From Alphaproteobacteria bacterium (GTDB lineage Bacteria > Pseudomonadota > Alphaproteobacteria > RF32 > CAG-239), in contig JAFUEX010000012.1 of assembly GCA_017470165.1 (NCBI GenBank), positions 8,149-72,148 on the forward strand: a stretch of 64,000 bases of DNA. The letters are read 5' to 3'. Made by a program: the position numbers and the translations under genes. Below, one piece after another: positions 61,165-64,000 of this stretch. Within the stretch, counting starts at the first letter, position 1, and each line of letters starts with the position of its first letter. Below the pieces are notes generated by a model that was not told the DNA's origin, made no database searches, and saw only the letters and a program-made list of their open reading frames with translations.

Positions 61165-61524
61165 CTAACGCCCGTACATACGTTTGTACATATTATAGAA
61201 GCGCAGAGCTTCTTCTTTATCGCAATCGTATGTCACGCTATCACTGATGAGCAGCGACAAAGCGCTAAGATTAGCCGGATCAAATTTATCAACCTTAGCC
61301 AATCTTATTAGCTTCGGCCAATCACGATCAATAATGGCATCGGCCTCTACACTGCTTTTGCAACGAGCGGCCAAAGAAACACATTCGCCATCGTGAAAGC
61401 CGTATTTGGCATCATATTTACGAACCAACTCTTCGGTTAGTGAATAGTCACCGTAAGATGCCCACTTCTTAAACAAGGCAGCTTCCTGAGACGGAGCTAC
61501 TTTTTGCAATCTAAAATTTTCCAT
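61165..61524 (-). CDS. hypothetical protein (119 aa)
   Basis: ORF track entry. No family recognised. Confidence 0.5.
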   Translation of the reverse strand: MENFRLQKVAPSQEAALFKKWASYGDYSLTEELVRKYDAKYGFHDGECVSLAARCKSSVEADAIIDRDWPKLIRLAKVDKFDPANLSALSLLISDSVTYDCDKEEALRFYNMYKRMYGR

Positions 61525-61704
61525 AATTCTTTTTTTATTTATTAATAATCAGATAACGGTTTGGTTTATACCATATTTTATGAGCTTACGCAAGACAAAT
61601 TTGGTAAAAAAATCAGCCGCCGCGATATTTTTTCACAAAAAATATAAAAAAACACTTGCAAGTTGGAAAAAAGTGGGTTATTAGGTTGGGCGTTGGAAAG
61701 TTAT

Positions 61705-61780
61705 GGTCCCATCGTCTAGCGGTCTAGGACATCGCCCTCTCACGGCGGTAACGCGAGTTCGAGTCTCGCTGGGATCACCA
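61705..61780 (+). tRNA. tRNA-Glu(CUC)
   Basis: ggtcccatcgtctagcggtctaggacatcgccCTCTCACggcggtaacgcgagttcgagtctcgctgggatcacca has a Glu-type D arm, anticodon CTC and an encoded CCA. Confidence 0.9.
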
Positions 61781-61787
61781 ATACAAG

Positions 61788-61816
61788 CGGCGCTTAGTTT
61801 TAAGCGTCGTTTTTCT
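61788..61816 (+). terminator. tRNA-Glu intrinsic terminator
   Basis: cggcgctta-gttt-taagcgtcg (one G-U pair) followed by tttttc. Confidence 0.7.
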
Positions 61817-62131
61817 TTTTAAATCAAGCACTTAATTGAATTCGAAAGTTTATTTTTTGAAAAAGCACATTTTGGGATATTTTACGAACTTTCACGAATC
61901 ATAAAGGTAATTTTAGTCAATTAAATTAATAAATTAGACAATTTTTAGGTGGTCAATTTACACGTACGTTTTTGCAATTAGATAAGTTGACATTATCCTT
62001 GGCTGTGTCAGGAAAAACGCCGGACACGCGTTCTTTCGGAGTATAATCAATTAGGCGGTATATTAAAAGTTTTAATGCACGTTGGGCGAATAATCGCCGA
62101 GTTGTTTGGCTGTTTTCAAATTATTATTCAT

Positions 62132-62216
62132 CATTTTGCAGATTCTGCTTGCCTCTATCTTTTTTGACAATATAATATTCATTGTAATTAGGTAATTTAT
62201 AAGACATTTTGCAGAT
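62132..62216 (+). repeat. 12-bp exact direct repeat cattttgcagat (62132-62143 and 62205-62216) bracketing 61 bp
   Basis: Read directly. The 73-bp offset is not a multiple of 3 and coincides with a frame change in the radical-SAM-like remnant. Confidence 0.8.
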
Positions 62217-62447
62217 GACAAAAGGTTTGTTTTTCATAGTCCTTTCTTTACGCCAAAAGATTGTTTTGTGGGTCGGATTTTACATATAAATCCTTGGGGA
62301 TACTTTACACCTTGCCCGCTATCTAATAAAGTTTTGGGGAACATCTTTACGATTTCTGACGAAGACTTAGATACTTTAATAAACAATACACCAAAACTCA
62401 TTTGTTTAAATAACGAGGATATAAGAAATGATGCAAAGCAATATTAA
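62196..62447 (+). pseudogene. C-terminal remnant of a radical-SAM enzyme with a twitch/SPASM-type auxiliary-cluster motif (no start codon; upstream parts frameshifted or lost)
   Basis: This is a stop-free frame with no Met: ...FHSPFFTPKDCFVGRILHINPWGYFTPCPLSNKVLGNIFTISDEDLDTLINN...KLIC...*. It contains C-x11-G-x4-C, which fits CX9-15GX4C, followed by GN. It overlaps the PqqD-like start by 20 nt. Confidence 0.4.
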
Positions 62448-62718
62448 GTTAGTGCTAAGTCCTAAAGTAATTACCAGGAAGCAAGATGGTAAGTTTTATT
62501 TATACAATCGAGATACTGAAAATGTGCTTGAATTGAATAGTATTGGCATGGAAATTGTTGAAAAACTTCAAACAAAAATTTCCTCTGAGGAATTAGCCAT
62601 ATATTTTTCAAATAAGTATAATATTTCTGTTGATGAAGTAATTACCGATATTAAAGATTTCATAGAAGCATGTATTGATAAAAAGTTCTTGTTGCAGGTA
62701 GAAAATGAAGACTCTTGA
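62428..62718 (+). CDS. PqqD-family protein (RiPP recognition element-like peptide chaperone)
   Basis: 96 aa reading ...KFYLYNRDTENVLELNSIGMEIVEKLQTKISSEELAIYFSNKYNISVDEVITDIKDFIEACIDKKFL. This matches the PqqD pattern (x-LN-x-G-x-I-W..., E.., Y.v...D...F...L....l). SD gagga lies upstream. Confidence 0.65.
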   Translation: MMQSNIKLVLSPKVITRKQDGKFYLYNRDTENVLELNSIGMEIVEKLQTKISSEELAIYFSNKYNISVDEVITDIKDFIEACIDKKFLLQVENEDS

Positions 62719-63901
62719 TGTTCTGGAAAAATTGATAGCCTTTGATACGGATGTTCAGAACTCTTCATTGGGTGCTGTACATTTTGTGGCAAACTATCTT
62801 TCAGACCACAAAGCAAATGTTTCACTTATTAGTAAAAACTATGGAGGACAACAGGATGCTAATCGTGAATCATTGATTGCATCGTTCGGAGAGATTGAAA
62901 AACCGGGAATTATATTTTCAGGACACTTGGATACCACAACAATAGTTGAACAAGAATATTTATGGGAGCGAGATCCTCTTAAAATGACTGTCGTTGATGG
63001 TCGTGTTTTTGGTAAAGGTTCAACAGATATGAAAGGAGCAATTTCTGTTCTTTTATCGCAAGTTGAAAAATTGAAAGTATTAGCAAAAAAATATCCTGTA
63101 CATATTGTTTTGACACATGATGATGAAGAAGGAGTTTTTACAGCTATAAATCAACTGAAAGACAATAATTTTTATAATCTTTTTCCCATAAAACAAAAAG
63201 GTTGTATTGTTATGGAACCATCGGAGTTACATCCGGTAAGTGCACATCGAGGAAACAAAAGAATATCCGTAGATGTTTATGGCAAAACTGCTCATGGAAG
63301 TGTTCCCCATATGGCTGTTGATGCTGTTTATTACACATTTCAGCTTTACAAAAAAGCAAAAGAGTTGGCTAAAATTTATTTCACCGAACAAGATAATCGT
63401 TTTGAATATCCGAGAACAAGTCTAAACATAAGTAATTTTCACGCCGGTATGTCTGATTCAATGATTCCTGATAAATCTCATTTTGACTTAAGTTGTCGAT
63501 ATGTTCCGAATGAGAATATTGAAAAATTTTTTGAAAGATTTTATTCATCTATCAGAATTATAGAAGATGAGATGAAAGAAAAATCTCCTGAATGTTCTGT
63601 TATCATTACAAAGAGAAATCACGTTCTTCCCTTAAACACAAAACCAAACAGTGAGATTTTAAAACTTGTGCAATATTCTGCTAACAATAATAATGCAAAA
63701 TCCGTAACATATGGTAGCGAAGCCGGATATTTTCAGAGCATGGGGATTGATACTGTTATTTGCGGTCCTGGTAATATAATGTACGCTCACAAACCAAACG
63801 AATTTGTTTTAATGGCTGATTTAATAAAATACGAAAGATTTTTATCAAATATGATATCTTTCAACAATTTTCACAGAAAGGAGTTTTTTAGAAATGATTA
63901 A
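62705..63901 (+). CDS. M20-family metallopeptidase (ArgE/DapE/acetylornithine deacetylase-like)
   Basis: It has FSGHLDTT...W..DPL...DGRVFGKGSTDMKG, then LTHDDEEG, MEPSE, the AHRG.. dimerisation region and SEAGYF...ICGPG....AHKPNEFV. Confidence 0.85.
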   Translation: MKTLDVLEKLIAFDTDVQNSSLGAVHFVANYLSDHKANVSLISKNYGGQQDANRESLIASFGEIEKPGIIFSGHLDTTTIVEQEYLWERDPLKMTVVDGRVFGKGSTDMKGAISVLLSQVEKLKVLAKKYPVHIVLTHDDEEGVFTAINQLKDNNFYNLFPIKQKGCIVMEPSELHPVSAHRGNKRISVDVYGKTAHGSVPHMAVDAVYYTFQLYKKAKELAKIYFTEQDNRFEYPRTSLNISNFHAGMSDSMIPDKSHFDLSCRYVPNENIEKFFERFYSSIRIIEDEMKEKSPECSVIITKRNHVLPLNTKPNSEILKLVQYSANNNNAKSVTYGSEAGYFQSMGIDTVICGPGNIMYAHKPNEFVLMADLIKYERFLSNMISFNNFHRKEFFRND

Positions 63902-64000
63902 GCTTGTTATTCCCTCTTCTAAATATAAACAAACATTTATATCAGCCGTTAAGGAAATAAAAAAACTTCAAGGTTTCATCTCTCCGTCAGTGCAACAATT
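63894..64000 (+). CDS. N-terminus of a further coupled gene (cut by the window end); weak resemblance to starts of some GNAT acetyltransferases
   Basis: My own translation gives MIKLVIPSSKYKQTFISAVKEIKKLQGFISPSVQQ... The ATG overlaps the M20 stop (ATGATTAA). Confidence 0.35.
   Translation, partial: MIKLVIPSSKYKQTFISAVKEIKKLQGFISPSVQQ

Follow-up and report, generated by a model that had tools for sequence, protein, structure and literature searches.

A radical-SAM gene remnant downstream of tRNA-Glu, very probably left by an internal deletion in a rare RiPP-like cassette of an alphaproteobacterial genome

In the window (the whole stretch of 64,000 nucleotides analysed here), the G+C content falls from ~46% to ~32% downstream of a tRNA-Glu gene, and the low-GC islet extends up to ~65.2 kb, just before the native lon gene on the minus strand; the islet has ~32% G+C vs ~46% for the genome. 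Both the tRNA-Glu and the low-GC islet beside it had been pointed out in an earlier reading made from the letters of the sequence, and both were borne out. The features found from the tRNA to the end of the window were as follows.

61705..61780, + strand: native tRNA-Glu, anticodon CTC (ARAGORN; Rfam tRNA, 57 bits)
61781..61891, + strand: native flank downstream of the tRNA, including a terminator hairpin (61785-61812, terminator scan); matches in many genomes of the genus
62053..62131, + strand: non-coding segment upstream of the cassette, ~90% identical to L016 119-205
62132..62143, + strand: first copy of the 12-mer CATTTTGCAGAT, located in variable DNA upstream of the promoter
62143..62200, + strand: cassette promoter region and start of the 5'UTR, 88% identical to L012 2629-2686
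62193..62200, + strand: probable deletion junction, TAATTTAT, aligning to both flanks of the segment deleted
62196..62447, + strand: radical-SAM remnant, codons ~196-275 plus stop (tblastn, family HMM, alignment, dN/dS)
62428..62718, + strand: PqqD-like peptide chaperone (RRE), intact, now orphaned (Pfam PqqD)
62705..63901, + strand: M20 / ArgE-DapE-type metallo-deacylase or peptidase, intact (Pfam Peptidase_M20 and M20_dimer)
63894..64000, + strand: start of a GNAT gene (Acetyltransf_3 / RimL-type), which ends at 64445, past the window end (ORF list, Pfam)

The complete GNAT gene occupies L001 3894-4445, and the homology to intact cassettes stops exactly at its stop codon. Near the tRNA, positions 61781-61891 shared 85% identity with the flank (C19:59099-59209) of another tRNA-Glu copy, which lies on a different contig of the same genome. 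At this tRNA-Glu-like locus (C19:59099-59354), the tRNA and ~110 bp of downstream flank together matched window 61636-61891 with 79-85% identity. The following ~160 bp (61892-62052) had no match in the genus, in its own genome or in the related loci. The homologue of 62053-62131, L016 119-205, sits between a tRNA-Pro and an independently truncated radical-SAM gene. On the other side of the tRNA, a 119-aa ORF (61165-61524, minus strand) lies next to a CoA-disulfide-reductase-like gene; it gave a weak TPR_ELP1 signal below cutoff, no significant family match, and no DNA match in sister genomes.

The frame from 62196 to 62447 has no stops, no frameshifts and no Met, and reads FIRHFADDKRFVFHSPFFTPKDCFVGRILHINPWGYFTPCPLSNKVLGNI... 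It contains HFADDKRFVFHSPFFTPKDCFVGRILHINPWGYFTPCPLSNKVLGNI, a C-x11-G-x4-C arrangement (C-FVGRILHINPW-G-YFTP-C) that corresponds to the first half-motif, C-x(9-15)-G-x4-C, of SPASM/twitch domains. The open frame and its motif had been seen correctly in the sequence-only reading, and its assignment to the C-terminus of a twitch/SPASM-type radical-SAM enzyme was confirmed by homology. In tblastn, the remnant was 92-94% identical to intact 275-aa homologues over residues 198-275 (E 4e-44), and the family HMM scored 156.6 bits at positions 196-275. The SPASM profile PF13186 matched the remnant weakly (17 bits, E 0.007, vs a gathering score of 21.5 bits) and was not reported at E<=0.001 for the intact homologue P0010; an NCBIfam search of the remnant gave no match. 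The remnant represents a twitch-like auxiliary-cluster domain with Cys217, Cys234 and Cys264 (P0010 numbering), and C217, G229, C234 and C264 were invariant in five homologues, down to the 50%-identical P0013. The second half-motif, C-x2-C-x5-C-x3-C, is absent; there is one further conserved Cys (C264), and the protein ends 11 residues later. Thus the domain is twitch-like and not a full SPASM. No match to residues 1-195, which carry the radical-SAM core (PF04055, CxxxCxxC), was found in any frame of the window or genome-wide. Judged from its sequence, the stretch in the window is a remnant of a Radical SAM member and not itself a member.

Intact forms of the gene were recovered from at least seven related metagenome or MAG loci, all with the constant order promoter, 17-aa precursor, radical SAM, PqqD, M20 and GNAT; the recovery of orthologues from related islands had been proposed beforehand. 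In the metagenome contigs L012-L015, L038 and L039, a Radical_SAM gene of 275/276 aa overlaps the start of PqqD and is followed by M20 (397 aa) and GNAT (183 aa). The same four genes are present in L031, from the MAG of an uncultured alphaproteobacterium, with a radical-SAM identity of 65%. These relatives carry both genes, in agreement with the claim that the remnant is a pseudogenised maturase and the partner of the intact PqqD-like gene. The intact enzymes possess C15-x3-C19-x2-C22 (CxxxCxxC, residues 15-22) and score 77-81 bits with PF04055, vs a cutoff of 29.5. This cysteine core had been expected about 1 kb upstream of the remnant; the proper figure is ~590 bp, the gene being only 275 codons long. 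The predicted structure of the intact protein (mean pLDDT 76) contains a hairpin (E221-225/E230-234) and then a helix (249-258), and it aligns to the SkfB twitch hairpin. The best fold matches of the predicted enzyme were SkfB (E 1e-11), CteB and SuiB, likewise by sequence, and none of the curated NCBIfam families was reached.

Just ahead of every intact radical-SAM gene there is a conserved ORF of 17 codons, presumed to encode the precursor peptide, with the consensus MW[IT]KP[LI]I[LI][ST][ES][RK]KL[SN]LTC*, a Shine-Dalgarno sequence before it, and a hairpin between it and the radical-SAM gene. It was located at 2710-2763 in L012, 560-613 in L015, 2642-2695 in L031, ~243-296 in L038 and 1-15 in L037. 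The peptide reads MWIKPLILSERKLSLTC in L012, MWTKPLIISERKLSLTC in both L015 and L038, and MWTKPIIITSKKLNLTC in L031, while L037, a contig that holds the 3' end only, gives ...ALTC*. The C-terminal LTC is kept even in the 50%-identity homologue.

When the intact L012 was compared with the window by blastn, L012 2629-2686 corresponded to window 62143-62200 (88%) and L012 3399-5651 to window 62193-64447 (82%), and nothing in the window matched L012 2687-3398. The two segments overlap on window 62193-62200, an imperfect 8-bp microhomology within which TTAT (62197-62200) is exactly common. A single deletion of ~720 bp (712 bp plus one copy of the imperfect 8-bp microhomology), at the TTAT microhomology (4-8 bp), very probably separates the window copy from the intact copies; measured against copies that are 82-88% identical and not against its own ancestor, its exact length and microhomology are approximate. 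The window copy lacks the last part of the 5'UTR, the precursor gene, the hairpin and radical-SAM codons 1-195. We propose that a horizontally acquired operon of ~3 kb gave rise to the deletion derivative in the window through an illegitimate, microhomology-type event. Such an event would have fused the promoter and 5'UTR to radical-SAM codon ~196, and, along with the precursor gene and the hairpin, would have taken out the ribosome-binding site and the entire SAM-binding core with its CxxxCxxC. The gene had been thought to be truncated against tRNA-Glu and a native gene. However, the tRNA lies 415 bp from the remnant and was not involved; the loss is internal and includes the precursor gene.

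The block 62143-62200 matches the region just upstream of the 17-codon ORF in the intact loci, indicating that what was taken for a frame-breaking segment of 61 bp is in fact the promoter of the operon. A promoter scan identified TTGCCT-16-TATAAT, with the -35 at 62149-62154 and the -10 at 62171-62176 (10/12 matches), and the alignments showed that it is also conserved in L012 and L015. Going by this consensus and conservation, the kept promoter probably still transcribes remnant-PqqD-M20-GNAT.

The sequence-only reading explained the region differently: the gene decayed against tRNA-Glu, frameshifted pieces of it survive at 61990-62143, and a 12-bp repeat marks an insertion or duplication of 61 bp. 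It is true that the 12-mer CATTTTGCAGAT occurs exactly at 62132 and at 62205, that its second copy (62205-62216, inside the remnant, where it encodes HFAD) falls within ~10 bp of the homology breakpoint, and that IIIHHFAD resembles IIKHFAD. However, the supposed radical-SAM pieces at 61990-62070 and 62075-62143 scored no more than 0.8 bits with the family HMM in all six frames of 61781-62204, and they showed neither a significant tblastn match (word size 2) nor DNA homology to the intact gene. Pfam and NCBIfam searches of 62075-62164 and 61951-62043 returned no families. Moreover, 61781-61891 belongs to the native tRNA flank, 62053-62131 matches non-coding DNA of L016, and the 61-bp segment shares 88% identity with the promoter of intact cassettes. 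The positions orthologous to the upstream 12-mer read AAATTTGTAAAT in L012, ATATTATAGAT in L015 and AAACTTAAATTT in L038, all of them intact cassettes; the upstream copy thus aligns with variable non-coding positions, and the proposed in-frame fusion of IIIHHFAD to DKRF has no meaning. We find this account of decay and frameshifts hardly credible. The exact repeat itself stood; what it brackets is the operon promoter and not an insert in a coding frame.

The repeat may also be regarded as a mechanistic scar, i.e. a template switch or a short gene-conversion patch that brought radical-SAM sequence into the promoter-upstream region. Only the deleted lineage has the 12/12 match (8-9/12 in intact relatives), and Markov simulations placed such a repeat in 1.6% of 600-bp regions, so the 12-mer is only mildly unusual. 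However, a deletion between the 12-mers would have removed the promoter, which is kept, and the observed junction lies at another microhomology (TTAT). There are 141 exact repeats of at least 12 bp with a spacing of at most 100 bp in the 1.45-Mb genome, 0.18 per kb in low-GC DNA, and the pattern was chosen post hoc. The 12-mer repeat is therefore treated as chance, a conversion or template-switch scar being improbable. A target-site duplication of a mobile element was rejected as well, since the 61-bp interval between the two 12-mers is orthologous to the promoter of the intact cassettes.

An assembly or sequencing artefact, with a full-length gene really present, would be conceivable for a draft MAG of 26 contigs and 89% completeness. 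However, the junction lies in the middle of a 90-kb contig, and neither a radical-SAM N-terminus nor the precursor was found elsewhere in the genome, as a rearrangement or an assembly split would have it. Furthermore, six contigs from independent assemblies (L017-L022; ENA and Logan, at least two studies), which represent different samples and two assemblers, agree with the window in every base across the junction and have the same flanks. The junction is thus not an assembly error, and we give the artefact next to no probability. Two of these contigs, L021 and L022 (Logan, different runs), both begin at exactly window 62099, which suggests an assembly-graph branch at this point, either a population variant or a second context of the downstream sequence.

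The dN/dS between the remnant and the intact copies was 0.07-0.08, indistinguishable from the 0.10 obtained between intact copies. This indicates a recent deletion, almost all of the divergence having arisen under selection. The PqqD, M20 and GNAT genes are all full length (dN/dS 0.10-0.23). One may ask whether the remnant was kept for a function: it could encode a small twitch-domain protein of 59 aa from GTG 62268, or its translation could serve as a leader coupled to PqqD. The frame has remained open, and it overlaps the PqqD start as in the intact operons. However, a frame left by a recent deletion would be expected to be open anyway, and PqqD has its own GAGGA Shine-Dalgarno sequence at 62414-62418. 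The GTG at 62268 is the only in-frame start in the remnant, no Shine-Dalgarno sequence precedes it, and the 59-aa ORF lacks Cys217, one of the three conserved cluster cysteines. Retention for a function is accordingly very unlikely. With an auxiliary-cluster domain only, and no credible start or Shine-Dalgarno sequence, the remnant would be inert. It is an ordinary gene remnant of a cassette whose intact form represents a rare RiPP-like family that is not curated; annotation of the remnant as a maturase, or of the islet as a working RiPP cluster, should be avoided.

The PqqD-like protein (PF05402) scored 28.4 bits with Pfam, above the cutoff of 23.4, with every specific NCBIfam PqqD subfamily below cutoff, and it was 71-84% identical to the PqqD of the intact cassettes. 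The M20 protein was 80-85% identical to its cassette orthologues and reached 288 bits with the acetylornithine-deacetylase-like NCBIfam model, below the 412-bit cutoff. A replacement maturase downstream had been suggested as an alternative to island erosion; the islet holds none, only M20 and GNAT, and then the native lon. No ORF of the MWxKP... or ...LxLTC* type was found in the genome of the window, and the radical-SAM core is absent too, so that a functional RiPP cluster was not found. We infer that the peptide-modification pathway is dead in this organism, and the selective value may now possibly lie in M20 and GNAT, as leftover processing or self-protection genes.

Among solved structures, the best match to the intact homologue was SkfB, the twitch-domain, thioether-forming radical-SAM maturase of the sporulation killing factor in Bacillus subtilis (PDB 6EFN; sequence E 2.9e-15; Foldseek E 1e-11, TMq 0.65). 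Like the cassette enzyme, SkfB has a C-x(9-15)-G-x4-C hairpin followed by a helix, and its substrate is a short ribosomal peptide with Cys. However, the identity is only ~21%, and SkfB, a protein of 412 aa, carries its peptide-recognition domain fused at the N-terminus. In the cassette, recognition is left to a separate PqqD, and the enzyme is a minimal protein of 275 aa; the window keeps only the last 80 residues of this enzyme. The PqqE/PqqD and MftC/MftB systems share with the cassette a discrete PqqD-family chaperone, a very short precursor with a conserved C-terminus, and a peptidase in the operon. However, the NCBIfam scores are far below the cutoffs (PqqE 49/381, MftC 54/265, PqqD 20/46), and the cassette differs from PqqE and MftC in having a single twitch-like half-domain instead of a full SPASM, an M20 instead of an M16 or creatininase-like peptidase, and a GNAT. 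In the streptococcal WgkB/WgkC system, WgkC is the best NCBIfam match of the PqqD-like protein and WgkB is among the top radical-SAM matches; the cassette precursor also has a W-x-K near its N-terminus. Nevertheless, with scores of 29 vs 110 (WgkC) and 63 vs 650 (WgkB) the cassette is not a member, and the conserved part of its precursor is the C-terminal LTC. There are also bacteriocin or RiPP clusters that have eroded but keep downstream processing or immunity genes, for example RimL/MccE-type GNATs that protect against microcin C. The present cassette resembles them in the repeated loss of biosynthetic genes with the 3' GNAT kept (window, L016 and G016) and in the Acetyltransf_3/RimL type of that GNAT. 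The window differs in also keeping PqqD and M20, and an immunity role would follow by analogy only.

Erosion of the cassette is not limited to the window. L012 and L013, with the full cassette, share 97-99% identity with G016, a genome of the same genus that keeps only the last 120 bp of M20 together with GNAT. In L012/L013 the cassette is accompanied by a KAP-NTPase gene, and in G016 (contig C7, L035) the 120 bp of M20 and the GNAT are accompanied by an AAA_33/pyrophosphatase gene; a second GNAT copy lies on contig C3 of G016. L016 has lost the promoter, the precursor and radical-SAM codons 1 to ~47 at a different breakpoint, and a second internal deletion runs from the 3' end of M20 to the 5' end of GNAT. 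Its truncated radical-SAM gene (L016 1-300) lies within ~120 bp of tRNA-Pro and is joined to the homologue of window 62053-62131. Stand-alone GNAT relatives with 52-82% identity were detected in four other genomes of the genus. Altogether, at least three independent 5' erosions of the cassette were seen, two of them in lineages other than that of the window. This pattern would fit relaxed or negative selection on production with the 3' genes kept, and it provides a small natural experiment in which production genes are lost and downstream genes retained.

Homology among the copies runs from ~30 bp upstream of the -35 to the GNAT stop, and these limits define a mobile unit of ~3.05 kb. Its neighbours vary from tRNA-Glu (window and L012) to tRNA-Pro (L016) and a 5S/23S rRNA end (L015), with no integrase in view. 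No radical-SAM or M20 orthologue was found in 56 genomes of the genus, only distant radical-SAM proteins with 24-33% identity, indicating that the cassette is accessory and foreign in composition. A scan of genome contigs returned one locus, L031, among 185,579 species genomes. Likewise, phmmer with the 83-aa remnant against 1.8 billion cluster representatives retrieved one true relative, P0013; a second match, P0014, was set aside as a repetitive protein of 1072 aa matching over 22 residues. The cassette family, found in just one of the 1.8 billion representatives apart from the window, is very rare, and a literature search for cassettes combining radical SAM, PqqD, M20 and GNAT found no description.

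As for its function, we hypothesize from the analogy with SkfB-type enzymes and from the invariant LTC at the precursor's C-terminus that the intact enzyme probably modifies the C-terminal Thr-Cys, for example by a thioether or related cross-link. M20 might then be a hydrolase that trims or releases the product, and the RimL-type GNAT might serve in tailoring or self-protection. A wider and rather doubtful reading is that the cassette encodes an undescribed peptide-derived natural-product pathway of uncultured Alphaproteobacteria, in which the radical-SAM enzyme would modify Thr-Cys and M20, as a carboxypeptidase or deacylase, would free a small product. The window and the GNAT-only loci would then be producers turned resistant non-producers that keep the self-protection genes, those of the window under the original promoter. 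With its boundaries defined from the promoter to the GNAT stop, the cassette is a compact candidate for heterologous characterisation.

A classical tRNA-associated integrative island was also considered for the islet and rejected, since the ORFs from tRNA-Glu to lon include no integrase and att repeats of this tRNA are missing. The sole tRNA-3'-like sequence on the right side is the ATCACCAAT palindrome (L001 4555-4639), which is a genus-wide repeat and not a copy of this tRNA; Rfam found only the tRNA in the islet, and the hairpin matches were this palindrome. The element, at 64555-64639 and hence past the window end, is long and near-perfect (ATCACCAATAAAAAAGCCCTC-TTTAT-GAGGGCTTTTTTATTGGTGAT) and is preceded by a tRNA-T-arm-like hairpin, GCTCGTAACTTGCGAGGTAAGC. 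It has many copies in most genomes of the genus and also occurs upstream of the L012 cassette (2443-2505); it may represent a REP-like element or a terminator, and a hotspot of recombination. Between GNAT and lon, a stretch of 152 bp (L001 4818-4969, window coordinates 64818-64969) was 91% identical to C18:25035-25185 on another contig of the same genome, and it is an unannotated dispersed repeat.
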